Part shown: piece after piece, positions 1 to 12,622 of the stretch | Layout of the letters: each line of letters opens with the position of its first letter | Position numbering within the stretch: position 1 is the stretch's first letter | Program-made: the position numbers and the translations under genes | The notes under the pieces: model-generated | What the model saw: only the letters and a program-made list of their open reading frames with translations | What the model was told of the DNA's origin: nothing | Databases searched by the model: none | Source: a virus | Reading direction: 5' to 3' (one strand) | IMG/VR virus record: IMGVR_UViG_3300045988_170515 | Length of the DNA: 25,591 nt

Positions 1-33
1 AAGAAAAGCGGCTGTTGCTTGATGCAACAGCCG
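1..33 (-). terminator. Intrinsic terminator after the integrase gene, possibly bidirectional (second copy at 25481-25505 after the RHH gene)
   Basis: Perfect 10-bp stem cggctgttgc/gcaacagccg (9-18/24-33) with 5-nt loop ttgat. On the minus strand it starts 6 nt after the int stop (40-42) and is followed by CTTTTCTTTGG. Confidence 0.7.
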
Positions 34-119
34 TGAACTTTATCTCTCAAACACCAACCCGAACGTTTCTTTGATGAAAAACACCTGCGGTTCGTATTTG
101 AGCTGCTTTGGTGGAGCAT
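1..119. repeat. Terminal direct repeat, identical to 25473-25591 (circular-closure overlap)
   Basis: Read directly: bases 1-119 are repeated exactly at 25473-25591. The repeat cuts through the 3' end of the integrase ORF, so it is an assembly or circular-permutation overlap, not a biological boundary. Confidence 0.9.
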
Positions 120-1677
120 CCGCGACTAAAAACGAACCGTTCCCCCCTGCACTGCTGTCTTCCGCGCTGTCTGGAAACAGCTCCACACCGTCCAGTTCTT
201 CAACGGCGTTAAGCACATCTATGGCAGACACCTGCTTGCCGTTCTTAATATTATAAACGATAACAACCCGATCGTCAAACAGATACACGGAGTTGATGAA
301 AACATCAATCAGCTGCCGTCTGAACTCAAAGTCCATCAGATCCCCGCGACACATGGATCTTATCCATGCTTCAACGTCTTCCTGCTTATATCTCACCTCG
401 GAAAGCACGCGAACCTTTGCAAGATCAATCTCCATATCGGCCTTGGCTGCACCTATACGTTCAATCTTATCATACAGTGCGGCACGTCCCGCATCGGGAA
501 TTGTTGTAAGTGCATCAACCAGCTTTCGAATATCATTATCACAGTTTTCAACGGCGCGTTCCAGCTCTTTCACCTTTCCGCCGTCAAACTCAGCATCGTT
601 AATCTCGATGATTCGCTTTGCAACATGCGACAACCGCTCCGGATCCTGCATATACTGCACGGTCTGCTCACAAACATACCACTCGATGAAGTCCTTTTTC
701 TCATGTTGTTTTTTGCAGCCGCTCTTTCCACGCCGTCCAACGCAAGAGTAGTAATAGAACGTTTTTTCATGTCTACCAGTGCCGGATATGCCGATCATAG
801 GTTCGCCGCAATAGCCGCAGAACATCTTTCCGGACAGCAGGTACTCCGTTTTTGCCTTTGCTTTTGCCGGTGCTCGGCGGTTAATCTCAAGTCGAGCCTG
901 AACCTTTTCGAACATCTCCGTGTCTACAATCGCCGGGCATCCGCCTTCAACCGTGATCCCCGTTTGAGTGAATTCGCCGGTGTACTTACGGTTCCGCAAA
1001 ACTGAATCGAAAGCCCTGTATGTAAACGGCTTACCAGTGCGCCGCATGTATCCTTTTGCCGTCAGTTCATCAATAATTTGTTTTTTCCCTATCCCCGCCG
1101 CATAGCGTTCGAAAATATACCTGACTATCGGCGCGGTTTCATCATCAATAATAAACTTAGAATCCACCACCTTGTACCCAAGAGGCACGGCACCGCCAAG
1201 GAAGTTGCCCTTCATTGCGCTGTCCTGCCGTCCGCGCTTAATTTTGCGCGACAGTTCCATAGAGTAGTATTCGGCACTGGCTTCAATCAAAGCTTCAAGC
1301 AGAATTGATTCATCCCCGGTGCCGATGCCCTCGGTTGCAGACACGACTTTGACGCCGCATTGCTTCAGCTCATGCTTGTACAGCACGCTATCATATCGAT
1401 TACGCGCGAACCGATCCAGCCTGTAAACGATTACATACGAAAACTGTTTTTTCTTTGCATCATCAATCATGCGCTGAAAGTCGGGGCGGGCATCGGTAGT
1501 GCCGCTGATCGCGCGATCTATGTATTCGCCGACTATTGCCAAACCTTCAACTTTTGCATACTCATGGCATATGCGCAGCTGCCCTTCGATACTTTCTTCC
1601 CGCTGACTGTGTGAGCTGTATCGGGCATAGATAACCGCGTTTTTTGTTGTTCCCATGGCGGGATACTTGAATTTCAT
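40..1677 (-). CDS. int: Large serine recombinase (phage integrase)
   Basis: 545 aa. N-terminal resolvase-type catalytic domain (AVIYARYSSHSQ...YRLDRFARN), central recombinase domain, Cys-rich zinc ribbon (CGYCGEP...YYYSCVGRRGKSGCKK) and C-terminal coiled coil. RBS GAGGT lies upstream. Confidence 0.93.
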   Translation of the reverse strand: MKFKYPAMGTTKNAVIYARYSSHSQREESIEGQLRICHEYAKVEGLAIVGEYIDRAISGTTDARPDFQRMIDDAKKKQFSYVIVYRLDRFARNRYDSVLYKHELKQCGVKVVSATEGIGTGDESILLEALIEASAEYYSMELSRKIKRGRQDSAMKGNFLGGAVPLGYKVVDSKFIIDDETAPIVRYIFERYAAGIGKKQIIDELTAKGYMRRTGKPFTYRAFDSVLRNRKYTGEFTQTGITVEGGCPAIVDTEMFEKVQARLEINRRAPAKAKAKTEYLLSGKMFCGYCGEPMIGISGTGRHEKTFYYYSCVGRRGKSGCKKQHEKKDFIEWYVCEQTVQYMQDPERLSHVAKRIIEINDAEFDGGKVKELERAVENCDNDIRKLVDALTTIPDAGRAALYDKIERIGAAKADMEIDLAKVRVLSEVRYKQEDVEAWIRSMCRGDLMDFEFRRQLIDVFINSVYLFDDRVVIVYNIKNGKQVSAIDVLNAVEELDGVELFPDSAEDSSAGGNGSFLVADAPPKQLKYEPQVFFIKETFGLVFER

Positions 1678-1689
1678 GCGATACCTCGG

Positions 1690-3054
1690 TTATTCTTCCG
1701 CAAGCAGGGCTAACAGTTTATCTTCATCCAGCTCCGTTGCATAGCACTCACCCTTATCAAGCAGGCGTTCAAGCTTTCGTCCGTTACTGCTCAAGCAATT
1801 GCTGTCGAGTTTTTCTAAAGGTATATCACCAACAATGTAAAAATCTGTATTGCCTGTAATGGTTGATTCTATGATTGCACCCTTTTCCCGAAGGATCTCA
1901 TTCAATTTTCGGCGCGTAAATGACCGGAATTCCCCTTCAGTAACAACCACCTGCCCAAAGAAAACGGATGCAGGTTTATCAGCCGCTTCAGTCTTAGCGG
2001 GCTGCGCTGCCGTTTCATCGGCTGCCGCATTATCTTCACTTTCAACCTCATCACATTCATCCTCATCATCGCTCCAAAACTGTGCCTTGGTGTTTGAAGT
2101 TTCAAGTACAGCCTTAGTTGTTACTTCCTGCGGTGCATCTTTGGACGTTTCATCCGCATTCCTGCGGAAGCGCACAACCACTCTTGCTCCAATAATATCG
2201 TGTTCGCTGAATACCCATATAGCGGTAATACCATCGCAACGATAAAAGTTATCGTAAAAGTACTGCACCTTTTCCCTGGGTATGAATCCAATAATATCAT
2301 CATGTACGCAAACGGCGAATGAAGGTTCGCCCTCATATTCTCCGCGTCTCAGTGTGCATGAATGGCATTCATCCTTATTGAAGGGTTCATCTCGAAAAAA
2401 AATCTTTTTCAGAATTGTTTGACGTGATTTTCTGCCGTTTTTAAATGTTACTCCCGCAACCGTAACCTTCCAATAGTCGTAATCATCATCTGAATGAAAA
2501 CCGTAATCAATTTCATTCACGGAAGACGGCTGCGCTGCCTTGGTTTCGGGCATTGCATATTCAACTGCCTTTGCTGTCGGCTTATCATGCTCTTCCGCTT
2601 TTATCTTGGGTTCTTCCCTCGGAACACTGCGTTCCATGGCGGGCGGTTGTGCAGTCTTGATTTTGGGCATTGCATATTCAACCGCCTTTGCTGTCGGCTT
2701 ATCATGTTCTTCCGCTTTTATCTTGGATTCTTCCCTCGGAGCACTGCGTTCCATGGCGGACGGCTGTGCTGTCTTAGTTTCAGCCGCTGCACGTTCAGCT
2801 GTTTTCGCTGTCGGCTTATCCTGTTTCTTTTCTTTCCCCTCGGGTCCTTTTTCTTCAGGTTTCTCTTTCGGCGATTCGGCGGGCTGCTCCGTCTGTCCCT
2901 TCCGGAACTGCCAATATCCGAGAGCACCGAACACAACAATCAACGCAAAGTAAATCAGCATATTTTGCAGATTCGGAATTGAAAGAATTGCACCCAAAAC
3001 GCAGAATGCAGCGATTCCCCAAAACACACACACACTCTTTTTCATGTTCTTCAA
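1690..3054 (-). CDS. Membrane-anchored protein: two N-terminal TM helices, repeat linker, HIRAN-like domain, acidic linker, C-terminal BRCT domain
   Basis: 454 aa with a TTG start 7 nt after GGGAGGAA (alternative ATG at 3045).
- Hydrophobic helices at about aa 8-26 and 32-49, flanked by K/R.
- E/K/P/A-rich 39-aa repeats at aa 79-178.
- aa 195-296 (VTVAGVTF...TLRRGEYEGEPSFAVCVHDDIIGFIPREKV...ARVVVRF) fit the HIRAN pattern.
- aa 362-454 (FFGQVVVTEGEFRSFTRRKLNEILREKGAIIESTITGNTDFYIVGD) fit BRCT.
Domain calls are by eye. Confidence 0.8.
   Translation of the reverse strand: MKNMKKSVCVFWGIAAFCVLGAILSIPNLQNMLIYFALIVVFGALGYWQFRKGQTEQPAESPKEKPEEKGPEGKEKKQDKPTAKTAERAAAETKTAQPSAMERSAPREESKIKAEEHDKPTAKAVEYAMPKIKTAQPPAMERSVPREEPKIKAEEHDKPTAKAVEYAMPETKAAQPSSVNEIDYGFHSDDDYDYWKVTVAGVTFKNGRKSRQTILKKIFFRDEPFNKDECHSCTLRRGEYEGEPSFAVCVHDDIIGFIPREKVQYFYDNFYRCDGITAIWVFSEHDIIGARVVVRFRRNADETSKDAPQEVTTKAVLETSNTKAQFWSDDEDECDEVESEDNAAADETAAQPAKTEAADKPASVFFGQVVVTEGEFRSFTRRKLNEILREKGAIIESTITGNTDFYIVGDIPLEKLDSNCLSSNGRKLERLLDKGECYATELDEDKLLALLAEE
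2521..2820. repeat. In-frame 117-bp tandem repeat (about 2.6 copies) inside the membrane HIRAN/BRCT gene
   Basis: gggcattgcatattcaac recurs at 2548 and 2665 (period 117). It encodes DKPTAK..AMERS.PREE.KIKAEEH units. Confidence 0.9.
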
Positions 3055-3154
3055 CGAAAAGTTCCTCCCGATTGATTAGGAATTGTTATCTATCTCTTTC
3101 AAGCGGCGGCAGCATTGCAGCAGCTCAAAAGGAATGATCTTTTTTCCCCGGCAT

Positions 3155-3280
3155 TCAGCCAACAAAAATCTGATCCGTTCTTGCAGGCTTTTTTTCAATG
3201 TCATCGCAGACGTTCATAACCGCCTGGATAATGCGCATTCGTCCCTGTTCAGTTGTTCCGCGAAACATTTCCACCAACAT
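3155..3280 (-). CDS. 41-aa micro-ORF resembling the C-terminal tail of XRE phage repressors (or a gene remnant)
   Basis: Translates as MLVEMFRGTTEQGRMRIIQAVMNVCDDIEKKPARTDQIFVG, preceded by AGGAAAAG. The frame is open upstream (..PALTEQEK) without another start. The TEQE..L...F motif parallels FTEQELALLRIFESL at the repressor C-terminus. Confidence 0.3.
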   Translation of the reverse strand: MLVEMFRGTTEQGRMRIIQAVMNVCDDIEKKPARTDQIFVG

Positions 3281-3320
3281 CTTTTCCTGCTCAGTAAGCG
3301 CAGGCTCAGCAGCGGCAGCA

Positions 3321-4256
3321 CTACCTTCTGCATCTCAACATCTCCATCAATTCATTTTCGTACACTTCACGGACGAAAACGCCCTTTTCACGCATTGCAA
3401 TGACCTTTTCCTGTTTTGAACTTAGTCCATCCTCTCCGACAACGGCTTTATCCTGTTTGCCGATTATAAGCATATCGGTCTTGCGAGTAACGCTGCTCTT
3501 AACAAAAGCACCCCTGTTTATAAGCATCTGTGACAGCTCCGTCCTTGAAAAGGCAGAGAAATCGCCTGTGATCACAACAGTCTTATTTTCAAATTCGTTG
3601 CCGTCATCATGAATCAATTCGTTCGTGATTGCTGTATCATAGTCAAGTTGCTCTCTAAATCCGCCGATTGCTTTTTGCGGAGAGAAGGAAATAAAATCTT
3701 TAGGTTCAATTGAAGTGAATGTTTTTACAAAAGTTGCAAAGCTTTTGTACCGTTTACGTTTAATTGTGCTGATTACGATTTTGGCACATGTTACCGCATC
3801 CTCCTCTGCGTTGTGGTGATTTGCAACGTCAACACCGAGGAAGTTTGCTCGTGCCTCAAGCGATCTGCCCACGTCCGTGCATACCTTTCCGGTTATGGGG
3901 ATGCTGCAATACCAGGTAAGCGGAGGAATATCAATGCCGTCCTTCATAAGGCAGAGCTTAAGCACAGACATATCAAAGCTTGCATTATGAGCAACGATCG
4001 GACAGGACCCATCAAAGTAATGTTCGATTTCCTTCCAAACTTCAGGGAATTTCGGGCTGTCCTTAACCATGCTCGGAGTAATCCCGTTGATTTGAATGTT
4101 CTTCTTGCCGAAAACGAGCGAATCGGGCTGAATTAGGTGATGCTCTGTGTGAACAATTTCCAAGTCTTTAACACATGCAAGCCCGACAGAGCAGGCACTT
4201 GAGTTCTCCGAAGTAGCAGTTTCAAAGTCAATTGCAATAAAATCGTAACCGTCCAT
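3321..4256 (-). CDS. DnaQ-like DEDDh 3'-5' exonuclease fused to a C-terminal BRCT domain
   Basis: 311 aa. ExoI IAIDFETAT, ExoII VAHNASFDMSVL, ExoIII HHNAEEDAVTCAKI. The C-terminus (FENKTVVITGDFSAFSRTELSQMLINRGAFVKSSVTRKTDMLIIGK) is BRCT-like. RBS GGAG lies upstream. Confidence 0.88.
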   Translation of the reverse strand: MDGYDFIAIDFETATSENSSACSVGLACVKDLEIVHTEHHLIQPDSLVFGKKNIQINGITPSMVKDSPKFPEVWKEIEHYFDGSCPIVAHNASFDMSVLKLCLMKDGIDIPPLTWYCSIPITGKVCTDVGRSLEARANFLGVDVANHHNAEEDAVTCAKIVISTIKRKRYKSFATFVKTFTSIEPKDFISFSPQKAIGGFREQLDYDTAITNELIHDDGNEFENKTVVITGDFSAFSRTELSQMLINRGAFVKSSVTRKTDMLIIGKQDKAVVGEDGLSSKQEKVIAMREKGVFVREVYENELMEMLRCRR

Positions 4257-4307
4257 TTTCTTATCTCCATTTCTTGTTAATTTTTCTGATCTGTTCTTAC
4301 ATATTTT

Positions 4308-4676
4308 TCATTTCACCAGTTCGGCAGCGTAAGCAAGCAATTGTGCTTGCTTAACCACATCAAGACTTTCGAAAATTCTTAACAACGCAAGCTCCTGCTC
4401 GGTAAAAGTTTTACCCACAGTGTTGCCGTTGCCGATTATGTTTCCATTGCCATTCACGTTATTGAATGCGTTTTCAGTGGGTGTATTTCCGATAAGATAA
4501 TCTGTTGAAACACCCAAAAACCGAGAAAGCTTTATTAATGTTTTTCCTGTAGGAAGCGAATCATGCTCTTCCCAATACTTTAACTGGTTTTTTCCAATCA
4601 TCAGTTCTTTTGAAAGTTGTTGCCAAGTGATATTTTTTTCAGACAACAGATACTTTAAGCGCTCAGTGAAATTCAT
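4308..4676 (-). CDS. XRE-family HTH repressor (CI-like)
   Basis: MNFTERLKYLLSEKNITWQQLSKELMIGKNQLKYWEEHDSLPTGKTLIKLSRFLGVSTDYLIG is a classic HTH_3 domain. The start at 4676 follows AAGAGGGG; the ORF-track start at 4745 would lie in the promoter region. N/G-rich linker, then a helical C-terminal tail. Confidence 0.88.
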   Translation of the reverse strand: MNFTERLKYLLSEKNITWQQLSKELMIGKNQLKYWEEHDSLPTGKTLIKLSRFLGVSTDYLIGNTPTENAFNNVNGNGNIIGNGNTVGKTFTEQELALLRIFESLDVVKQAQLLAYAAELVK

Positions 4677-4738
4677 TGTAGCAAACCCCTCTTTCCCTGT
4701 TAATTCAGAATATATTTTTATTCTTAGTGTTAAACCCC

Positions 4739-4768
4739 TTGACATTCCCTGTTTTTAGGGAGTAAAAT
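4739..4768 (+). promoter_or_regulatory. Candidate rightward (early/lytic) sigma-70 promoter
   Basis: TTGACA (4739-4744), 18-nt spacer, TAAAAT (4763-4768). Confidence 0.45.
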
Positions 4769-4778
4769 TAGATACAAA

Positions 4779-4791
4779 CAACAAACATTGA
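4779..4791. promoter_or_regulatory. Candidate operator half (13-mer CAACAAACATTGA)
   Basis: Exact reverse complement recurs at 4871-4883. This copy sits at the predicted start site of the rightward promoter. Confidence 0.4.
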
Positions 4792-4845
4792 ACACAAGCC
4801 CGCAAAAACGGACTGCGACAATGGTTCATTGGATTCAGCAACCAC

Positions 4846-4874
4846 AGTATACCATTGTTGACATATAATGTCAA
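4846..4874 (-). promoter_or_regulatory. Candidate leftward (repressor/lysogeny) sigma-70 promoter
   Basis: On the minus strand: TTGACA (4874-4869), 17-nt spacer, TATACT (4851-4846). It overlaps the palindrome TTGACAT-ATA-ATGTCAA (4858-4874). Confidence 0.45.
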
Positions 4875-4883
4875 TGTTTGTTG
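4871..4883. promoter_or_regulatory. Candidate operator half (TCAATGTTTGTTG), inverted copy of 4779-4791
   Basis: 13/13 reverse-complement match. It overlaps the -35 of the leftward promoter. Confidence 0.4.
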
Positions 4884-4913
4884 CACATAAAAAACGATAG
4901 AGGAGACTACTAA

Positions 4914-5147
4914 ATGGAGACTACACGAAATGAAAGGCACGAAGTCAGAATAATGCTTTGCCGTAACGCACTGCCTAAAACTTGGCTGATTGCACAGTTG
5001 GAAGCGGCGGGCATCATCGTTGACGCGCCGCGTCTTAACAAGATGCTGAGCGGATCGATTCGCGGTGCAACAGCGGACGAAGTGATTGACGCAAGCACGA
5101 AGATCCTTCACCGCTACGAAGCCGCCATGGGCGTTAGTTTTGATTAA
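4914..5147 (+). CDS. First rightward early gene, Cro-like small regulator (function putative)
   Basis: 77 aa with RBS GAGGAG 8 nt upstream. It sits opposite the repressor. A possible HTH is KTWLIAQLEAAGIIVDAPRLNKMLSG. Confidence 0.7.
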   Translation: METTRNERHEVRIMLCRNALPKTWLIAQLEAAGIIVDAPRLNKMLSGSIRGATADEVIDASTKILHRYEAAMGVSFD

Positions 5148-5161
5148 GGAGGGAACCACCA

Positions 5162-5386
5162 ATGACAACAGAAACGCAAACGAAGCAGAAACAATACATT
5201 CAGGTTGGAATCATTGCACCGCGCGACAGGGCAACAGGCGAATTCGGCACCGCCGTTCCGCTGTATGTTGAAGCCGATATCGGCGATGCAGCCGCTGCCG
5301 ACATTGCAACTGCGCTTTGCGGCAGCAAGCCGTTCCGCGATATGGTTGAAAAGGCCGCACGGCAAAGCTCACGGAGGTGTGAATGA
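5162..5386 (+). CDS. Hypothetical early protein
   Basis: 74 aa, RBS AAGGAGGG, tight packing with its neighbours. Confidence 0.7.
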   Translation: MTTETQTKQKQYIQVGIIAPRDRATGEFGTAVPLYVEADIGDAAAADIATALCGSKPFRDMVEKAARQSSRRCE

Positions 5387-5562
5387 AAATACGCTTTTTT
5401 ATGAAAAACGGAACTGTATCGCCGGATTTTGAGTGCGCTAAATTTATAGTCCGCAAAGATGTGTGTGGAAAAATTATCGGTTGGAGTGCTGAAGAATGTG
5501 ATATCCCGCGTCTGATGTATATTGACTTGGAAGAAGTACTCATGGTTTGGAGGGTAGAATGA
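5383..5562 (+). CDS. Hypothetical early protein (59 aa, below the ORF-track cutoff)
   Basis: ATGA overlap with the upstream stop, RBS GGAGG. Translates MKIRFFMKNGTVSPDFECAKFIVRKDVCGKIIGWSAEECDIPRLMYIDLEEVLMVWRVE. Its stop overlaps the next ATG. Confidence 0.6.
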   Translation: MKIRFFMKNGTVSPDFECAKFIVRKDVCGKIIGWSAEECDIPRLMYIDLEEVLMVWRVE

Positions 5563-5783
5563 TAAGGCGAAGGCATTCCAAACGCAATAAGGCACTGCGA
5601 AAAGCAATTGCCAAAGTGATAAAGTGGGCACTTATCACGCTGTTCGGCTGGCTGCTGTTCGAGCTGTTCCGCCCGTATGCCGTGGAGTTTCGCGGCACAC
5701 TGCTGTACGGCGGCGAGGTTATGTTCCTTGGTATGCCGCTGTACTGGGCAGCGGTTGAATCGATTATTAAGGATATATGCTGA
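5559..5783 (+). CDS. Small membrane protein (2 predicted TM helices)
   Basis: The start at 5559 (ATGA overlap, RBS GGAGGG) is preferred over the track start at 5547. Basic N-terminus, then WALITLFGWLLFELF and VMFLGMPLYWAAV. Confidence 0.65.
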   Translation: MIRRRHSKRNKALRKAIAKVIKWALITLFGWLLFELFRPYAVEFRGTLLYGGEVMFLGMPLYWAAVESIIKDIC

Positions 5784-6091
5784 GATGTATGCTGAAAGGA
5801 AGGCTTGAAGTGGCGAAAAAAGAACTTGAAAACATCAAGATTAAGGGACATACCGGCACATGGTACGAAATTGACCGCCGCACACTCTATGGAAAAACAT
5901 TCTATCTTATGGAAAGCGAAATCTATGGAGATGAAGCCCCGGGCATCATCATCGATGAAGCGCATGAACCGGTTATTGAAGACGTTTTTGACGGATTCGA
6001 TCATGAAACCGTGTCAACGCTGGATTGGATCTCCGTGTACGGAAAAAACATTTGCTATGATTATTTAAAGAAAGAAGGCGAATTGAAATGA
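5777..6091 (+). CDS. Hypothetical early protein
   Basis: 104 aa with protein-like composition. The start is uncertain: ATG 5777, or in-frame GTG 5810 after AAAGGAAGG. Confidence 0.6.
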   Translation: MLRCMLKGRLEVAKKELENIKIKGHTGTWYEIDRRTLYGKTFYLMESEIYGDEAPGIIIDEAHEPVIEDVFDGFDHETVSTLDWISVYGKNICYDYLKKEGELK

Positions 6092-6315
6092 AGAGCGAAT
6101 GGAAAGTAACCAGTAACTGCATTGGCGGAGAATGGTTTTATGGTGTATACAGGCTGCGGGACCGCAAAGATGTTGACCACAGCGGCAACCGTGAAACCCC
6201 GGATAAGCAGTTTTTTGATGCGATTGAAAACCTGCTTGGGCGAAAACTTAACCCGCAAGACGAAGCCGAGGCCGAGAAGATCGCACGATTGCTGAATGCT
6301 GCTCCAAAGGAATAA
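6088..6315 (+). CDS. Hypothetical early protein
   Basis: 75 aa, ATGA overlap with the upstream gene. Confidence 0.65.
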   Translation: MKSEWKVTSNCIGGEWFYGVYRLRDRKDVDHSGNRETPDKQFFDAIENLLGRKLNPQDEAEAEKIARLLNAAPKE

Positions 6316-6510
6316 AAATAATCCACAATTCAACAGGAACATGTGGATAACTGCGCTGCGTTCTGTCAAGGTTCGCATTCATGGATTTCCTCCCTACTCC
6401 CCGTTTAAGTGCAGGTGCTTAACAAAAACAAGCCCTGCACAGACTGCGGGGCGGTGCGAAATTGACAGAACGCAGCGTATAAGCCGTATAAGCATAGAAA
6501 GGAATACCCT
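6316..6510. other. 195-bp non-coding, highly structured block (candidate single-strand origin, ori element or ncRNA)
   Basis: - TAATCCACA (6319-6327) and a perfect TTATCCACA on the minus strand (6342-6350), in inverted orientation.
- Perfect 16-bp long-range inverted repeat at 6354-6369 / 6462-6477.
- Inner hairpin 6409-6440 (11 bp with one bulge).
- ccccg/cgggg pairing around it. Confidence 0.5.
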
Positions 6511-6996
6511 ATGAATAAGCCAAAACCTATAAAAGAAATTCGAATAATGTTCGCTGAAGAGGTGCAGCAAATCCTCATTAGAAATGATTGGTTTGCGTTG
6601 GCAACCAATAAAGAATATGCGCAGTTCCTTGATTATGTGCGAAGGTTTGAAGGAACGCATGTTACGCTTGAAGATCTGCGTCAGATGGCAGCTGATGTTA
6701 TGCGTTACAGCGATCCGGATACCTATGATCAAGAGATGGGCATTCCCGGAATCATGTTTGAGCTTGCGCGAGCGGTACATTCCGTTTACACAGAGACGCA
6801 AGAACGCGCTGCCAAGTGTATCAACGCTGTAACCCTGCTGGCGCAGATAGAAAAGGACCTGCGCAAAACGGTAGATGAAAAAGGGGCGGAAAACAGTTCG
6901 ATGCATGAGCCTTACAAGATAATTGCGGACAGCATATATAAATTCATCATGGCGGAAATAGAAAAATGCCCTGCCGCCGATGCCGATATGATATGA
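6511..6996 (+). CDS. Hypothetical early protein
   Basis: 161 aa, RBS GAAAGGA, balanced composition. The overlapping minus-strand 215-aa ORF looks antisense (F/R/H/I rich). Confidence 0.7.
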   Translation: MNKPKPIKEIRIMFAEEVQQILIRNDWFALATNKEYAQFLDYVRRFEGTHVTLEDLRQMAADVMRYSDPDTYDQEMGIPGIMFELARAVHSVYTETQERAAKCINAVTLLAQIEKDLRKTVDEKGAENSSMHEPYKIIADSIYKFIMAEIEKCPAADADMI

Positions 6997-7379
6997 ATCT
7001 GCTGCCGCAAATGCGAAGGCTTGTGCAGCAAGCCTGTGCACACTACGAACTTTCCGTACGGGAAACCATACTGGAACGCGAGTTCACGCAGAATCGAAAC
7101 GGGGACAGGCTGCATGTGCCGTGCCTGCGTGTCAGCATCGATTACCCGAATATATGGCAAATCTGCGAACTGCAATGTGATCCGGTATCACCGAGCCGAG
7201 GATACTACAGCATGAGCAATAACAACATTGTTATGTATGCGGTGTTTGCTGACGGCAGCAAACGTATCCTTCCGGCATGGCGGGGCAAACTGATAACCGA
7301 TAATAAGGAGCTTAACCAACATGAATACCACATACGCAAGGGCTATATGCCGATCGAAGCGGACAAGCACCTACTATAA
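6993..7379 (+). CDS. Hypothetical early protein
   Basis: The start at 6993 (ATGA overlap) is preferred over the track start at 6966. 128 aa. Confidence 0.6.
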   Translation: MNLLPQMRRLVQQACAHYELSVRETILEREFTQNRNGDRLHVPCLRVSIDYPNIWQICELQCDPVSPSRGYYSMSNNNIVMYAVFADGSKRILPAWRGKLITDNKELNQHEYHIRKGYMPIEADKHLL

Positions 7380-7494
7380 GACCTGTCCGTATTGCGGAGC
7401 ACGGCTTGATCCGAACGAAAAGTGCGACTGCAAAAAGAGCAAGGGCATGGCAGCGGCTAAGGCACGCGCCGGTGCCGCCGGTGCTGAGAGGTAG
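7321..7494 (+). CDS. 57-aa Cys-rich (zinc-ribbon-like) micro-protein overlapping the 3' end of the previous gene
   Basis: MNTTYARAICRSKRTSTYYKTCPYCGARLDPNEKCDCKKSKGMAAAKARAGAAGAER contains CxxC...CxC. AAGGAG lies 10 nt upstream. It overlaps 6993-7379 by 59 nt in another frame. Confidence 0.45.
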   Translation: MNTTYARAICRSKRTSTYYKTCPYCGARLDPNEKCDCKKSKGMAAAKARAGAAGAER

Positions 7495-7577
7495 AGCGTT
7501 TCTACTTATAATTAGGAAGCACACAAGCCTTTTTCGGGCTTGTATGAAGTATTAACAAGTCAACGTTTGAATATGCG

Positions 7578-7643
7578 TGTGCGCTATCCCCTTCCGGGGT
7601 ATTACTCGGGGGGGATGCAGGGGGTCCTAACCCCCTGCGCACA
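7578..7643. other. GC-rich nested dyad symmetries immediately upstream of rep (candidate double-strand origin or regulatory site)
   Basis: tgtgcgc (7578-7584) pairs with gcgcaca (7637-7643). An 8-bp stem gcaggggg/ccccctgc (7617-7624 / 7631-7638) carries loop tcctaa. A small cccc-ttcc-gggg hairpin is also present. Confidence 0.35.
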
Positions 7644-7675
7644 TTATGCATCATATCGGCAGGAGGTTCACAACA

Positions 7676-8482
7676 ATGCACAGTTCCGAACGATACATGC
7701 AGCTGTTCACGGACACTGCATCCAGCTCATCAGGTGCGGCCGTAGGCAGATACAGATGCAAAACCATCAAGGCTGGTAAAATGCTCGAATGCGAAATCTA
7801 TCCGATATGGAACACTGCAAACGAAGTGCGCAAAGCAAAACAACACATAACCCGCGCCGAGCAGATCGCACTGAATGAACGTAATGCCCGCAAGCGGTTG
7901 GAGCGAAGGCTGAATGCAAACTTCACCGAAGAGGATTGCTGCGTAACCCTGACATATGCGGGAGATTTTGTTCCGGATGCAGATCAAGCCCGCAGGGATA
8001 TGCAGAACTATATCCGCCGGATACGTACATACCGCCGAAAGCACGGACTGAGCGAAATGAAGTATATATACGTCATAGAGTATGCCGATGCTGACGGTGT
8101 ACCAAAACGTGTACACCACCATGTTGTTATGAGCGGAATGCCGCGAGATGAGATAGAGCGGCTGTGGGGCAAGGGGTACGCAAACTGCCGCAGGCTTCAG
8201 CCGAATGAGTACGGATACGAAGCACTGTCCCGCTATATGACAAAGCAAAGCAAGGGCGGCAAACGGTGGTGCAGCTCAAAGAACTTGAAAGAACCGATTG
8301 TCACCACATCGGATACACGCATCAGCCGCCGAAAGGTTGAACGGATGATTGTTGATTTTACAACCGAACCAAAAGCGATTTTCGAAAAACTGTACAAGGG
8401 CTACACGTTTACGGACTGCGAAATCAGATATTCAAAGTTTGTGGCGGGTGCTTATATCCATACGCGAATGCGAAAGGAGTAA
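7676..8482 (+). CDS. HUH-superfamily rolling-circle replication initiator (Rep)
   Basis: Start at 7676, 9 nt after AGGAGG. Motif I CVTLTY, motif II (HUH) VHHHVVM, motif III SRYMTKQSK (catalytic Tyr). 268 aa. Confidence 0.75.
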   Translation: MHSSERYMQLFTDTASSSSGAAVGRYRCKTIKAGKMLECEIYPIWNTANEVRKAKQHITRAEQIALNERNARKRLERRLNANFTEEDCCVTLTYAGDFVPDADQARRDMQNYIRRIRTYRRKHGLSEMKYIYVIEYADADGVPKRVHHHVVMSGMPRDEIERLWGKGYANCRRLQPNEYGYEALSRYMTKQSKGGKRWCSSKNLKEPIVTTSDTRISRRKVERMIVDFTTEPKAIFEKLYKGYTFTDCEIRYSKFVAGAYIHTRMRKE

Positions 8483-8484
8483 CC

Positions 8485-8889
8485 ATGACGAAAGCCGAGC
8501 TGCGGAATTACAAGAATATCAAAAGCGAGAAAGAAGAACTTGAAAATCTGATACAGGAATACCTGGACAGCAGCACAACCATGAAAGCAACACGGCTTGC
8601 GAAACTATCCGCGCACGGCGGGAAAGCAAGCAATCCCATGCTTGCCGCTATCATCATGCAAGAGAATATCGCCGCCGTATACAGCCGAAAGGTCGAACAC
8701 CTTGCGGCGGCTATGCAGCGCATAGAAACCGCAATTGCAATGCTTCCGTCAGTCGAGCGGAGATTGATGCGAATGCGGTACATCGAGGGCTATACTTGGG
8801 CTGAGGTGTGCGAACGCATGTCATACAGCAGTCAGCGCGTGCATCAGATACACGGTAAAGCCTTGCTGTCGCTGCAAACATTAGAGTAA
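8485..8889 (+). CDS. Sigma-70 region-4-like / RinA-ArpU-type late transcription activator
   Basis: 134 aa. The C-terminus (LPSVERRLMRMRYIEGYTWAEVCERMSYSSQRVHQIHGKALLSL) is a region-4 HTH. It sits directly upstream of the HNH/terminase genes. Confidence 0.75.
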   Translation: MTKAELRNYKNIKSEKEELENLIQEYLDSSTTMKATRLAKLSAHGGKASNPMLAAIIMQENIAAVYSRKVEHLAAAMQRIETAIAMLPSVERRLMRMRYIEGYTWAEVCERMSYSSQRVHQIHGKALLSLQTLE

Positions 8890-8914
8890 ATTAGAGTAAA
8901 ACATGTGTTATAAT
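8881..8914 (+). promoter_or_regulatory. Candidate late promoter: tandem 10-bp direct repeat plus extended -10
   Basis: ttagagtaaa occurs twice (8881-8890, 8891-8900), followed by TGTTATAAT (8906-8914). The -35 hexamer is poor, consistent with activator dependence. Confidence 0.45.
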
Positions 8915-8946
8915 ACCATTGTTGAACTGTGCAAATCGAGGTGCGT

Positions 8947-9258
8947 ATGCAAGAGTGGGCGAAAAAGTTTTATAACTCAGCCGCGTGGGATGCCACACGC
9001 GCAGCATATTTGCTTAGCGTCAACGGGCTGTGCGAACGCTGCCTGCGCCGCGGCATAGTAACACCGGCTAAAGTGGTTCACCACAAAAAATATTTGACAC
9101 CGAAAAATATCGGAACGGCAACCGTTACACTGTCGTGGGATAATCTCGAAGCGTTGTGCCAGGACTGCCACAACTCTGAGCATCATCAGCATCGCAAGAA
9201 GCGATATACGTTCGATGCGAACGGACACATAATCCCCCCCTATTCTCACACCGAGTAG
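8947..9258 (+). CDS. HNH endonuclease (packaging-associated)
   Basis: CERCL...VHHKKYL...NLEALCQDCHNSEHH. The ATG at 8947 after GAGGTG is preferred over the GTG at 8929. Confidence 0.85.
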   Translation: MQEWAKKFYNSAAWDATRAAYLLSVNGLCERCLRRGIVTPAKVVHHKKYLTPKNIGTATVTLSWDNLEALCQDCHNSEHHQHRKKRYTFDANGHIIPPYSHTE

Positions 9259-9377
9259 GGGTTCAGCCAACCGAGGAGGGGAGGAACGAATTACTCCGCA
9301 GGTGTGCGCGTGTGCGGTGTAGCGCGTGTCGATGGGGGGTGGTGTCTCGGGCAACTGACGGAAAGGAGGGCAGATCT

Positions 9378-9734
9378 TTGGCTGCAAAGGCGATCATATC
9401 GAAAGATGAACTGATTAAGAAGGAATTAAAGCGACTTGGTAAAGTTTTTGCAGATTTAGACGGAAATCAACGCAAAGTTGTGGAACCGCTGTTGTCAACA
9501 GCGGCTTTTTTATCCGTGTCGCTTGCAGAATTGCAGGAAAGCATAAACGAAAACGGCTACACTGAAGAGTATCAAAACGGCGCAAACCAATTCGGGGTTA
9601 AGCAAAGCGAGAATGTGAAAACGCATATCGCAATGACCAAAAATCTAACTGCAATCGTTAAGCAGCTCTGTGATCTTGTGCCTCCGGAACGCAAGAAAGA
9701 GAGCCGCCTGGCTGCACTGAGACGTGATGAATAA
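9378..9734 (+). CDS. terS: Terminase small subunit (P27-like)
   Basis: TTG start 6 nt after AAAGGAGGG, with no in-frame ATG nearby. The pattern NQRKVVEPLL...LAELQESINENGYTEEYQNGANQFGVKQSENVK is typical of P27-family terS. Confidence 0.8.
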   Translation: MAAKAIISKDELIKKELKRLGKVFADLDGNQRKVVEPLLSTAAFLSVSLAELQESINENGYTEEYQNGANQFGVKQSENVKTHIAMTKNLTAIVKQLCDLVPPERKKESRLAALRRDE

Positions 9735-11373
9735 CTACATCATCGACTATGAACGCTGCATACGCACTGGAACCATGGCGGCAAGCATTGAGGTTAAAAC
9801 GCTGTACAAGAAATTGGTGCAGGGCATATCGGACGGAAGCCTGATTTACAACCACAAAAAAGCAATGAAGCCAATAAACTTCATCGAGAATTTTTGCCAC
9901 CACAGTGCGGGCCGATCGGATCTGCTTAAGCTGGAACTTTGGCAGAAGGCTGCACTGTCAGCAATATTCGGAATTGTAGATGAAAATGGCAATCGTGTTT
10001 ATCGTGAGGTATTTCTGGTTGTTGGCCGGAAGAACGGTAAAAGTTTGTTGGCATCCGCAATCATCGCATATATGGCATACATTGACGGCGAATACGGGGC
10101 TGAAATTTACTGCCTTGCGCCGAAGCTGGATCAGGCAAGTCTGGTATTCAATGCATTCTACCAAATGATTCAAAAAGAGCCGGAGCTTGAAGAATTATCA
10201 AAAAAACGGCGCAGTGATATTTACATTGCCGATACAAACACAACCGTGAAACCGATAGCATTCAACGCAAAAAAATCCGATGGATTCAACCCGCACTTAG
10301 TTGTGAATGATGAAATGGCAGCATGGCGGGGCGATGCAGGACTTAAGCAGTACGAGGTAATGAAATCCGCACTGGGTGCACGTAAACAGCCGCTGATATT
10401 GTCCATATCAACGGCAGGATATGAAAACAACGGCATATTCGATGAGCTGATGAAACGCGCATCAGCAGTGCTGAAAGGCAGCAGCAAAGAAACAAGGCTG
10501 TTGCCCATTATTTATAAAATCGATGATCCCAATCGGTGGAATGATGCAACTGAAATCCGCAAAGCAAACCCCAATATTGGAGTGTCTGTATCGGCGGATT
10601 TTTTCCGAGATGAAGCTGCCGTAGCTGAAACATCCGCGAGCAAAAAAACAGAGTTCCTGACCAAATACTGCAACATCAAACAAAGTTCGAGCGTAGCCTG
10701 GATAGACTATAACACCGTTTCCAAGTCGGTATGTGCCTGTGCGATCGATGATTTCGCAGGCTGCTATGCTGTCGGCGGGCTGGATCTGTCTCAGACAACG
10801 GACCTTACGGCAGCAAGCTGCATCATCGAACGCGGCGGATCTCTGTACAATTTCACGCAGTTCTTCATGCCGCATTCGCGCCTGGAACGTGCGTGTGCGG
10901 AAGACGGAGTTCCGTACAGCGCATTCGTGCAGCGAGGCATTCTGACGCTGTCAGGCGATAATCACGTTGACTACAACGATGTATTCGCCTGGTTTCGCAC
11001 ACTGGTGGAAGCGCACAAGATTTACATACTTAAGGTTGGATATGACCGCTATTCAGCTCAGTACCTTGTAGATCAAATGCGTGAATACGGATTTCATATG
11101 GACGATGTTTTCCAGGGTGAGAACCTAACTCCGGTTATACGCGAATTCGAAGGTATCATGCTGGACGGCAAATTTAAAATTTGCGGTGAAAACGACTTGC
11201 TCAAAGCGCATTTTCTTAACGTTGCAATGAAGCAAAATCTCGAAACACGCAAGATAAGGCCGATAAAAATAAATCAACGGGATCGCATAGACGGGTTTGT
11301 GTCCGTACTTGATGCGCTGACCGTTCGGCAAAAGTACAATCAAGAAATAGGAGAACTGCTGAAAAATGAATAA
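9727..11373 (+). CDS. terL: Terminase large subunit
   Basis: Walker A VVGRKNGKS, Walker B LVVNDEM, C-terminal nuclease region. About 548 aa. The alternative GTG start at 9724 overlaps the terS stop. Confidence 0.92.
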   Translation: MNNYIIDYERCIRTGTMAASIEVKTLYKKLVQGISDGSLIYNHKKAMKPINFIENFCHHSAGRSDLLKLELWQKAALSAIFGIVDENGNRVYREVFLVVGRKNGKSLLASAIIAYMAYIDGEYGAEIYCLAPKLDQASLVFNAFYQMIQKEPELEELSKKRRSDIYIADTNTTVKPIAFNAKKSDGFNPHLVVNDEMAAWRGDAGLKQYEVMKSALGARKQPLILSISTAGYENNGIFDELMKRASAVLKGSSKETRLLPIIYKIDDPNRWNDATEIRKANPNIGVSVSADFFRDEAAVAETSASKKTEFLTKYCNIKQSSSVAWIDYNTVSKSVCACAIDDFAGCYAVGGLDLSQTTDLTAASCIIERGGSLYNFTQFFMPHSRLERACAEDGVPYSAFVQRGILTLSGDNHVDYNDVFAWFRTLVEAHKIYILKVGYDRYSAQYLVDQMREYGFHMDDVFQGENLTPVIREFEGIMLDGKFKICGENDLLKAHFLNVAMKQNLETRKIRPIKINQRDRIDGFVSVLDALTVRQKYNQEIGELLKNE

Positions 11374-12622
11374 AACTACCAAGGGTGAACGGCGCGGGTT
11401 GTTTGATGCAATATTCGGCAAGCCTAAGGCACTGCAAGCAAACAGTTATTTTAAGCTGCTGAACGGCTACACACCTGTTTTTACGAACGCGCCGGAAAGC
11501 ATCTATGAGATGGAGCTTACCCGAGCAGCTATACACCAGTTCGCCACTTTTTGCAGCAAACTAAAACCGGAAATGACCGGCAAGGCAATGCGGCACCTGG
11601 AAAAGACACTGCAAATGAAACCCAACCCCTTCATGGATACAACCAAATTTATTTACAGGATAGCAACGATCCTATCTGTAAACAATACTGCATTTATCGT
11701 TCCTATCGAGGATGAACGCGGTGTGATTATGTACTACTATCCCGTTCTTCCGCAGCGGTGCGAAGTGGTCGAACACAAAGGTAAACCGTATTTGCGGTAC
11801 ACGTTCGGAACAGGACAGGTTGCAGCGATAGAATATGAACGTGTCGGTGTGCTGACGCAATTCCAGTATGAAAATGATTTTTTCGGCAGCAGTAACAGCG
11901 CACTGCGCCCGACAATGCAGCTGATCCATACACAGAATCAAGGCATAATTAACAGCGTAAAAAATTCCGCATCTATCCGATTCCTGGCTAAAATCGCCAA
12001 CATCATTAAGCCCGAAGACATAGAGGCGGAGCGCAAACGATTTACGAAGGATAATCTGTCAGCAGACAATGAGAGCGGTATGATCATCTATGATAACAAG
12101 TTTTCTGACATCAAGCAAGTCGATTCGAAACCCGTGACGGTATCACCGGCACAAATGCAGTTGATTAATGAATCGGTTTACAGGTATTTCGGAACAAACG
12201 CAAAGATCCTGACAAACTCTTATACTGATGAAGAATGGGGCGCCTACTATGAGGGCAAAATTGAGCCGTTTGCAGTGCAGCTTTCACTGGTAATGTCAAA
12301 CATGACATTCAGCCCGCGAGAGATATCACACGGAAACAGCATTTTGTTTTCGGCCAATCGGCTACAGTATGCAAAGACTGAAACAAAAATCGCTGTATCA
12401 ACACAACTTTTTGACCGTGGTCTTATAAATCGCAACAGCGTGATGGATATCTTCAATATGCCGCACGTAGAAGGCGGCGATAAGTACTACATTCGCAAGG
12501 AATATGCAGAGGTATCACAACTCGGAAAGGAGACTGACAATGCCGATAGTCGCAACACGGGAGTACAGAGCACTGCTGGGTCCGCTGACACAGCAGTCAA
12601 CAACACAGACGAAACGAATTGA
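11366..12622 (+). CDS. Portal protein (HK97 family)
   Basis: 418 aa, positioned right after terL with a start overlapping the terL stop. The sequence pattern is typical of HK97-type portals. Confidence 0.88.
   Translation: MNKTTKGERRGLFDAIFGKPKALQANSYFKLLNGYTPVFTNAPESIYEMELTRAAIHQFATFCSKLKPEMTGKAMRHLEKTLQMKPNPFMDTTKFIYRIATILSVNNTAFIVPIEDERGVIMYYYPVLPQRCEVVEHKGKPYLRYTFGTGQVAAIEYERVGVLTQFQYENDFFGSSNSALRPTMQLIHTQNQGIINSVKNSASIRFLAKIANIIKPEDIEAERKRFTKDNLSADNESGMIIYDNKFSDIKQVDSKPVTVSPAQMQLINESVYRYFGTNAKILTNSYTDEEWGAYYEGKIEPFAVQLSLVMSNMTFSPREISHGNSILFSANRLQYAKTETKIAVSTQLFDRGLINRNSVMDIFNMPHVEGGDKYYIRKEYAEVSQLGKETDNADSRNTGVQSTAGSADTAVNNTDETN

Follow-up and report, generated by a model that had tools for sequence, protein, structure and literature searches.

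Prophage genes that encode a DEDDh-type 3'-5' exonuclease fused to a BRCT domain have been annotated in several temperate phages, including p04 of staphylococcal phage phi12 (also phiN315, phiNM3 and StauST398-1, -2 and -4) and an "exonuclease" of the pneumococcal IPP-series prophages. The present analysis concerns IMG/VR virus record IMGVR_UViG_3300045988_170515, a stretch of 25,591 nucleotides referred to as the window, in which two BRCT-domain genes adjoin on the minus strand between a repressor gene and an integrase gene. The first, geneB (3321-4256), encodes a 311-aa protein assigned by Pfam matches as a DEDDh 3'-5' exonuclease (aa 5-170), a linker and a BRCT domain (aa ~218-309). The second, geneA (1690-3054), is an open reading frame (ORF) for a 454-aa protein with a predicted membrane hairpin, a repeat linker, a HIRAN-like domain, an acidic linker and a divergent BRCT domain. 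Both gene types have been annotated before but are uncharacterised, and comparison with sister prophages indicates that the block does not form one system, but holds two accessory genes that entered the prophage lysogeny operon by separate inheritance.

The phi12 and pneumococcal proteins are distant relatives of geneB, 28-32% identical to it over 97-99% of the geneB length, and show the same combination of DEDDh and BRCT domains. Their genes also occupy the same position as geneB, directly after a CI or ImmR-type regulator and before the integrase; unlike geneB, they are carried by other phage backbones, which use tyrosine integrases, and lack a geneA-like gene beside them. Their annotations vary among "DNA polymerase exonuclease subunit", "helicase" and "exonuclease". 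Mycobacterial DnaQ (Rv3711c type), a clamp-bound proofreader, is the characterised protein nearest to geneB by architecture, having a DEDDh exonuclease followed by a single BRCT domain (PMC10634781). In contrast to DnaQ, geneB lacks the C-terminal clamp-binding motif and is prophage cargo, not a chromosomal replication gene. The TONDO/ISG20-like prophage exonucleases (PMC13344964) and PADLOC candidate PDC-S48 resemble geneB as prophage-borne, single DEDDh exonucleases, combined with an auxiliary domain or ORF that varies. Protection against phages is known for prophage DEDDh enzymes that carry an auxiliary domain; the TONDOs act on RNA phages (PMC13344964), and the PDC-S48 match is limited to the exonuclease domain of geneB. 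Literature searches found no functional study of an exonuclease-BRCT lysogeny gene and no BRCT-based defence.

Regarding geneA, pneumococcal ThaL offers a likeness of concept, as a membrane-anchored HIRAN-type protein of a prophage lysogeny module, the HIRAN label of geneA being sub-threshold. GeneA goes beyond ThaL in carrying a repeat linker and a BRCT domain, and ThaL was named but not functionally studied in the paper describing it. The superinfection-exclusion (Sie) genes of lactococcal P335 prophages share with geneA the position between integrase and repressor, the expression strand and, by prediction for geneA, an N-terminal membrane anchor. They differ in that no sequence relationship to geneA was detected in PHROG and PADLOC searches with its N-terminal 350 aa, and geneA is much larger, with nucleic-acid-type domains predicted to be cytoplasmic. 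The HIRAN domain of HLTF (PDB 4S0N, 4XZF, 5BNH and 2MZN) is similar in length to the middle domain of geneA, and the order of sequence patterns is alike (V-x-G-x-x-F/Y, A-hydrophobic-x-V and I-G-x-hydrophobic-P), whereas the geneA domain family has an extra Arg-Gln helix and E-G-E-P-A in place of N-P-Y-D. The diDNase/HIRAN-HipA clusters (PMC11706625) were set aside as relatives; they involve NrnC-type enzymes of Actinomycetes and offer a parallel only.

Separate inheritance of geneA and geneB

With 95-99% nucleotide identity to loci L001-L012, the window and these loci represent one prophage. In L001-L004, which represent 24 contigs, the lysogeny operon runs from a different repressor, a 139-aa helix-turn-helix (HTH) protein, through geneA to the integrase and contains no geneB. 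The window and L001 are 97-99% identical save at 3312-4775: positions 109-3311 align at 98.7%, ending within the L001 repressor gene, and 3312-4775, which holds geneB and the repressor, stands in place of 319 bp of that gene (L001 7425-7743). Alignment to L001 also revealed a scar at 3115-3307 (minus strand), a 193-bp 3' remnant of the alternative 139-aa repressor, within which the translation of ORF 3155-3280 is the exact C-terminus of the L001-type repressor. Because the window keeps this scar of the repressor found in its sisters, its own repressor and geneB constitute a swapped immunity cassette. In L005-L012, the scar is gone, the gap between geneB and geneA is 60 bp, and about 13 bp are shared at the junction; geneA and geneB adjoin in the same operon there as in the window. 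GeneA starts 12 bp before the integrase and is the constant partner of the integrase of this lineage, the window enzyme being 97% identical to the integrases of L001-L004. GeneB thus travels together with the repressor as an exchangeable immunity cassette, and geneA remains with the integrase. Two small ORFs of the region were ruled out as genes: the 41-aa ORF 3155-3280 is the repressor remnant, and the 42-aa ORF 3076-3204 lies inside 3055-3311, which aligns to the end of the L001 repressor and the spacer before geneA.

With GC contents of 0.377 and 0.44, respectively, the repressor and geneB are AT-richer than the rest of the phage (0.488), and geneB lies below every segment of the same size elsewhere in the phage. 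The AT-richness that had been noticed by eye across the whole block is therefore real for the repressor and geneB; for geneA, at 0.46 (9th percentile), it is marginal.

The original prediction had described geneA and geneB as a dedicated two-gene module and had specified beforehand that absence of co-occurrence elsewhere would speak against it. The two genes do not co-occur elsewhere, and geneA occurs without geneB in near-identical prophages. While most of what had been observed in the sequence is confirmed, the dedicated two-gene defence module is thus unsupported in the form proposed. In a neighbourhood survey of the pair, none of the 47 exonuclease-BRCT loci had a HIRAN-like gene and none of the 62 HIRAN-like loci outside the lineage had an exonuclease or BRCT gene, so that co-occurrence was seen in this lineage only.

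The host genes beside the integrases of L001-L012 differ, being PfkB/SIS sugar genes in most and an acetyltransferase with an LHH toxin/SUKH immunity pair in L007 and L010, which suggests more than one attachment site or host.

The exonuclease-BRCT family

In geneB, Pfam RNase_T (PF00929) matches aa 7-160 (52 bits versus a cut-off of 24; E = 1.6e-13) and Pfam BRCT (PF00533) matches aa 221-276 (28.2 bits versus a gathering score of 21.3). The catalytic residues D10 and E12 (DFE), D95 (HNASFD), and H148 and D153 (HHNAEED) are present and are 99-100% conserved in an alignment with 104 relatives. The claim of an apparently active DnaQ-type exonuclease fused to a BRCT domain at 3321-4256 is borne out by these matches, all catalytic residues having been kept, and geneB looks catalytically competent. 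In the BRCT domain, residues T230-G231 and K281 are invariant across the family, and the BRCT domains of LigA, the NAD-dependent DNA ligase, are the closest in similarity. The NCBIfam model NF004844 (PRK06195, "DNA polymerase III subunit epsilon") covers aa 5-308 of the 311 residues with 226.4 bits (E = 5e-67), which is below its equivalog cut-off of 373 bits and indicates a related subfamily rather than an equivalog. Pfam also relates geneB, weakly, to Rv2179c-like 3'-5' exoribonucleases. The C-terminus of geneB reads ...ENELMEMLRCRR, without the Q[Y/L]ALF clamp-binding motif described for DnaQ (PMC10634781). Against PADLOC-DB v2, only the exonuclease domain of geneB matched, namely to candidate PDC-S48 (E = 2.9e-25) and to a Cas-associated DEDDh model. 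The original prediction did not recognise the architecture as a described defence system; this holds insofar as PADLOC gave no match beyond a generic exonuclease domain, but the novelty was overstated, as phi12, phiN315, phiNM3 and pneumococcal prophages already have an annotated exonuclease-BRCT gene in the same place.

Relatives of geneB with 28-56% identity over the full length are found in lysogeny modules, preceded by repressor-type genes and followed by the integrase, in all nine contexts inspected outside the lineage. These contexts include three unrelated metagenomic prophages and prophages of Clostridium felsineum, Defluviitalea saccharophila, Cytobacillus firmus, Staphylococcus (phi12) and pneumococci; phiN315, phiNM3 and the StauST398 phages also match the family. 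In seven of the nine, the gene directly follows CI or ImmA, and in L013 and L089 it is set apart by one or two other genes; a geneA-like neighbour was present in none of the nine. A survey of IMG/VR loci with exonuclease and BRCT domains, based on crude home-made profiles, gave an upstream HTH or ImmA gene in the same orientation in 31 of 45 loci, an integrase downstream in 25 of 47 and a HIRAN-like gene nearby in 0 of 47. Taken across phages of five genera, geneB-type genes lie downstream of CI(S24) or ImmR-ImmA, directly after them in most. GeneB is therefore a member of a widespread family of Bacillota prophage exonuclease-BRCT genes, placed nearly always next after a CI repressor or ImmR-ImmA. 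Several homologues are labelled "3'-5' exoribonuclease" in their source records. Toxin-antitoxin genes (PemK/SocA and HicAB) occur in the integrase-repressor interval of related loci. In the Defluviitalea and Cytobacillus prophages (L088 8077-9294 and L089 7963-9233), the exonuclease-BRCT gene is followed by DUF6978 and DUF1828/DUF1829 genes and then the integrase, an arrangement that may represent a conserved partnership.

The HIRAN-like family and the predicted membrane anchor of geneA

The N-terminus of geneA (aa 8-50; 2905-3033, minus strand) is predicted to form a two-helix membrane hairpin with both ends inside. Kyte-Doolittle windows exceed 1.6 at aa 5-11 and 22-32, the hydrophobic segments span aa ~8-26 and ~31-50, the loop PNLQN is uncharged, and Lys/Arg residues stand on both outer flanks. 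GeneA is thus plausibly anchored with its bulk in the cytoplasm. The hairpin is followed by a linker of about 145 residues (aa ~51-194) consisting of 16% Glu, 14% Lys, 14% Ala and 11% Pro, which is encoded by a 117-bp tandem repeat of 2.6 copies (2525-2825, minus strand; Tandem Repeats Finder score 441, 84% matches). Both the positive-inside pair of transmembrane helices and the E/K/P/A repeat tether of the original prediction are consequently retained. About 20 close homologue clusters of geneA, 79-99% identical, all come from this prophage lineage, and their lengths of 371-510 aa are set by the number of repeats, so that the tether differs in length among otherwise near-identical prophages.

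The middle domain (aa 195-305; 2140-2472, minus strand), with the motif VAGVTFKNGRKSRQTIL, was delimited by a family profile and an AlphaFold (AF2) model as a HIRAN-like beta-barrel. The family comprises about 850 representative clusters at E ≤ 1e-3 and 438 at E ≤ 1e-10. Small proteins that bear a membrane hairpin, single helix, TM2 domain or zinc ribbon at the N-terminus make up most of the family, and the domain is C-terminal in 134 of 154 members; the addition of a BRCT domain was seen in this lineage only. GeneA is accordingly a BRCT-bearing variant of a large prophage family that combines a membrane hairpin or zinc ribbon with a HIRAN-like barrel.

The assignment of this domain to HIRAN proper is weakly supported. 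The AlphaFold model, built from 70 family sequences, has a predicted local distance difference test score (pLDDT) of 89.8 and a predicted template modelling score (pTM) of 0.84. Pfam HIRAN (PF08797, gathering score 24.7 bits) does not match geneA at E < 1. It is the commonest sub-threshold family among the relatives of the middle domain (12 of 70, best E = 3e-4), and aa 50-126 of relative P0024 align in register to HIRAN positions 7-73 of 96 with 16.9 bits. A Foldseek search of the model against PDB gave nothing at E ≤ 0.001 (best E = 0.043), and none of the HLTF HIRAN entries was among the 50 matches listed, though HLTF chains are present in the PDB sequence set. A viral model labelled "HIRAN domain" in BFVD matches weakly (E = 0.012, probability 0.99, TM-score 0.42). 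Alignment of the family to a single HLTF HIRAN sequence by hhalign paired the expected segments, with a probability of just 3.5%. The family profile met only spurious coronavirus nsp12 matches among PDB sequences (E ~0.05), and a protein search with the HLTF HIRAN domain for profile building yielded vertebrate exon fragments only, which were unusable. The family possesses an additional helix in which an Arg-Gln pair is invariant. Following V-x-G-x-x, the aromatic residue is retained as Phe and presumably corresponds to a residue of the HLTF binding pocket. The HIRAN-like domain of the original prediction therefore stands as a confident fold with sub-threshold HIRAN matches, but fails at the Pfam threshold and in the comparison with HLTF in PDB; binding of 3' ends by this domain can be proposed by analogy. 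An early structure model of geneA aa 190-454, built from 16 sequences, was unreliable in its BRCT part (pLDDT ~30) and gave no informative match in PDB. In BFVD, the middle-domain model also matches a viral protein of 454 aa named "DNA polymerase III subunit alpha" (E = 1.9e-3).

Other searches with geneA were negative. PADLOC-DB v2 gave nothing below E = 0.1, the N-terminal 350 aa (anchor, linker and middle domain) had no PHROG or PADLOC match, and tblastn gave no match in 50,697 GenBank phage records, either with the middle domain or with a typical member of the family as the query. Megablast of window positions 1-6000 against GenBank phages was likewise without a match, and a search of genome contigs turned up no relative of geneA.

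In other prophages, mainly of Oscillospiraceae and Lachnospiraceae, the HIRAN-like genes are encoded on the other strand than the lytic genes, beside cro-like HTH genes and often directly before or against the integrase. They abut serine or tyrosine integrases, co-oriented or convergent, in about 20 of 64 loci, for example, L017 8001-10310, L021 3037-7852, L050, L052-L053, L059-L064 and L077-L080. No integrase was detected beside most of them, and some occur in phages with DDE-type (rve) enzymes. An exonuclease or BRCT gene within 6 kb was found in 0 of 62 loci outside this lineage. Several further features of these loci were observed. In L021, the HIRAN-like gene stands beside a cro-like gene, in the position expected for a repressor. 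A large subgroup (L019/L020, L039, L043 and L073) has an IS30-like enzyme with HTH_38 and rve (DDE) domains in place of a classical integrase; at each of these loci, no other gene shares the strand of the HIRAN-like gene, which lies between the lysis region and the early region. L019 and L020 carry a reverse transcriptase beside a DUF6273 gene of the tail region, an arrangement that may represent a diversity-generating retroelement.

BRCT domains and fusion proteins

The C-terminus of geneA (aa 359-454; 1693-1980, minus strand) is a divergent BRCT domain, scoring 23 bits against the Pfam threshold of 21.3, and hhalign relates it to the BRCT family of geneB with a probability of 97.9% (E = 5e-13). 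The acidic linker and second BRCT domain that had been claimed for geneA are supported by these values. The alignment pairs TEG of geneA with TG of the family and SSN with SSK, placing Glu at the invariant Thr and Asn at the invariant Lys. In BRCA1-type BRCT domains, the conserved Thr/Ser-Gly and Lys form a phosphate-binding pocket, and the second repeat of tandem BRCT domains often lacks these residues. The two BRCT domains are thus predicted to be homologous but not equivalent. The idea that both proteins carry the same adaptor holds as far as homology is concerned, and is weakened because geneA lacks the Thr and Lys that are invariant in the geneB family.

Fusion proteins join several of these parts in single chains. 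Among the 120 closest relatives of geneB, six (P0032, P0036, P0056, P0063, P0084 and P0145) possess N-terminal membrane hairpins, one or two in number, with P/E/K-rich linkers. P0032 consists of a geneA-type hairpin, an exonuclease and a BRCT domain, and its anchor is 36% identical to that of geneA (E = 1e-6); at its locus (L090 7001-8488), the order is CI(S24), the membrane-anchored exonuclease-BRCT gene, HicAB and a serine integrase. P0152 (489 aa) combines a zinc ribbon, a HIRAN-like domain and an RNase_T exonuclease (E = 6.8e-30). The fusions of anchor with exonuclease-BRCT and of HIRAN-like domain with exonuclease imply that the parts belong to one toolkit, and the relatives fused to zinc ribbons and RNase_T point to a cytoplasmic role. 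These architectures suggest that the anchor, HIRAN-like barrel, exonuclease and BRCT domain serve one kind of process, probably acting on DNA ends near the membrane.

Possible functions

The reading favoured here, which is held tentatively, is that lysogens express both genes and that the products attack free 3' ends of DNA on the cytoplasmic side of the membrane, excluding incoming DNA from superinfecting phages or from transformation. In its favour are the intact active site of geneB, the lysogeny-side position of both gene families, the predicted cytoplasmic bulk of geneA, the fusion proteins, the toxin-antitoxin genes in the same interval of related loci and the precedent of anti-phage prophage DEDDh exonucleases (PMC13344964). 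Both proteins would be made in the lysogen and work on such ends; an entering 3' end would be captured by geneA, and single-stranded or frayed DNA would be degraded in the 3'-to-5' direction by geneB. Together or separately, they would exclude superinfecting phage DNA or transforming DNA able to cure the prophage. They may cooperate when both are present, and neither would require the other. Several points weigh against this reading. DnaQ-type exonucleases mainly act on single-stranded or mismatched 3' ends and pose a weak threat to double-stranded DNA phage genomes. The HIRAN assignment, and hence the proposed 3'-end binding, is sub-threshold, and N-P-Y-D, the canonical pocket motif of HLTF, shows no visible conservation, corresponding by alignment to E-G-E-P-S/A in the middle-domain family. 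The predicted BRCT domain of geneA is without the conserved Thr and Lys. The strict coupling of geneB to the repressor fits a role in the lysis-lysogeny switch equally, and with about one-third of the HIRAN-like genes abutting an integrase, these genes could have a role in recombination.

Of the other explanations, a role of geneB in the lysis-lysogeny switch survives best, and is considered unlikely. GeneB would trim 3' single-stranded DNA, lower the RecA/single-stranded DNA signal and thereby set the induction threshold or shield the prophage from recombination, geneA being an unrelated exclusion-type gene. The position of geneB-type genes after CI(S24) or ImmR-ImmA in five genera and their exchange together with the repressor are in accordance with this role, and lysogeny-module genes of pneumococcal prophages have been reported to tune responses to RecA and DprA-bound single-stranded DNA (PMC12637031). 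However, the membrane anchors on some relatives would be odd for a cytoplasmic modulator of a signal, and the same position is a known hotspot of accessory cargo, such as toxin-antitoxin genes.

Participation in the DNA transactions of the phage itself is somewhat less probable still. Here, geneA would be an accessory of the serine integrase, concerned with the directionality of integration and excision or with end handling, and geneB a repair or proofreading exonuclease like mycobacterial DnaQ. GeneA is separated from the integrase by 12 bp and accompanies it in every case, and HIRAN-like genes abut serine or tyrosine integrases at the frequency given above, but no integrase is detected beside most of them, some of their phages use DDE-type (rve) enzymes, and a membrane anchor is unexpected in a recombination cofactor. 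As for geneB, the full-length match to NCBIfam models named "DNA polymerase III subunit epsilon" and the exonuclease and BRCT make-up shared with the clamp-bound mycobacterial proofreader (PMC10634781) favour such a role, whereas its score of 226 against the NF004844 cut-off of 373, its end (...ENELMEMLRCRR) without the Q[Y/L]ALF clamp motif described for DnaQ (PMC10634781) and the existence of sister phages that manage without geneB stand against it.

The two-component defence of the original prediction, in which tethered HIRAN/BRCT geneA senses entering DNA ends and recruits exonuclease-BRCT geneB through the shared BRCT domains, is improbable. The genes are adjacent in one operon in the window and L005-L012, their BRCT domains are homologous, and anchor plus exonuclease-BRCT and HIRAN-like plus exonuclease fusions are known elsewhere. 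Furthermore, T-G...K is kept in geneB and absent in geneA, resembling what is familiar from the two halves of a tandem BRCT. Nevertheless, geneA stands without geneB in sisters that are 98% identical, geneB arrived with the repressor and not with geneA, 0 of 47 exonuclease-BRCT loci and 0 of 62 outside HIRAN-like loci carry the partner, and the two genes are found together in a single prophage lineage only, of which geneA is a constant part. An elaboration of the pairing is similarly doubtful: a split tandem BRCT in which geneB keeps the pocket that geneA lost, allowing the soluble exonuclease to dock on tethered, 3'-end-binding geneA. The two proteins would then be the counterpart of single chains like P0032, destroying entering single-stranded or frayed DNA, and would belong to a wider, so far unrecognised toolkit with which Bacillota prophages exclude incoming DNA, its parts being hairpin anchors or zinc ribbons, HIRAN-like barrels, DEDDh exonucleases and BRCT domains.

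It is very unlikely that geneB is a TONDO/ISG20-like RNA exonuclease that restricts RNA phages or trims RNAs with the BRCT as an auxiliary domain, for despite the weak Rv2179c-like match, the "3'-5' exoribonuclease" names given to several homologues by their sources and the likeness to the prophage-borne TONDOs with their variable auxiliary domains, its best full-length matches are to DnaQ/PolC-type DNA exonuclease models, its most similar BRCT domains (those of LigA) belong to a DNA enzyme, and we know of no RNA phages that infect gut Clostridia.

The specific pairing of geneA and geneB matters little; the two broader families matter more. The exonuclease-BRCT gene, an apparently active DEDDh enzyme usually encoded next after the repressor, occurs in temperate phages of S. 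aureus, S. pneumoniae, Bacillus relatives and gut Clostridia, and is relevant to the protection of prophages and their hosts from incoming DNA. The HIRAN-like family takes in about 850 representative clusters of lysogeny-side proteins with a confidently folded domain that is absent from PHROGs and below the Pfam threshold. Should one or the other family keep out the DNA of phages or of transformation, it would represent a new class of prophage-encoded protection in gut Firmicutes.

Operon layout and regulatory sites

In the direction of transcription (minus strand, 40-4745), the order is repressor, geneB, scar, geneA and serine integrase. All ORFs reported earlier for this region lie on the minus strand at the positions given then, and the gaps agree: 12 bp between integrase and geneA, 51 bp between geneB and repressor, and 40 and 100 bp flanking the 41-aa ORF 3155-3280. 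The last gene of the operon (40-1677, minus strand) encodes a large serine recombinase with Pfam Resolvase, Recombinase and Zn_ribbon_recom domains. The XRE/CI-type repressor (Pfam HTH_3) extends over 4308-4745 on the minus strand; the use of an internal ATG by gene callers gives 4308-4676 (122 aa). The called length is likewise 122 aa in L006 and L009-L012, whereas L005, L007 and L008 have 97 aa.

A promoter-like site for the leftward lysogeny operon lies at 4846-4874 (minus strand; TTGACA-17-TATACT with an extended TG, 11 of 12 matches, a consensus match only), and a rightward promoter-like site at 4739-4768 (plus strand) also has 11 of 12 consensus matches. The two sites face one another across the spacer between the repressor and the early genes (4746-4913, GC content 0.369), and 4739-4874 is likely to be the genetic switch region. 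A terminator-like hairpin with a 10-bp stem followed by a T tract lies 3' of the integrase (9-33, minus strand) and is the sole clear minus-strand example downstream of the operon. No terminator-like site was found between repressor, geneB, geneA and integrase, with one weak match inside the geneA coding sequence. A single leftward lysogeny operon from repressor through integrase is a reasonable prediction, because there is a promoter-like site and no intergenic terminator-like site.

On the other side of the switch, window positions 5000-12209, homologous to L001 1-7424, contain an early region with a rolling-circle-type initiator (REP_ORF2-G2P), a sigma-70 region-4 protein and an HNH nuclease directly before the terminase. 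A replication module of the REP_ORF2-G2P type is unusual for a tailed prophage.

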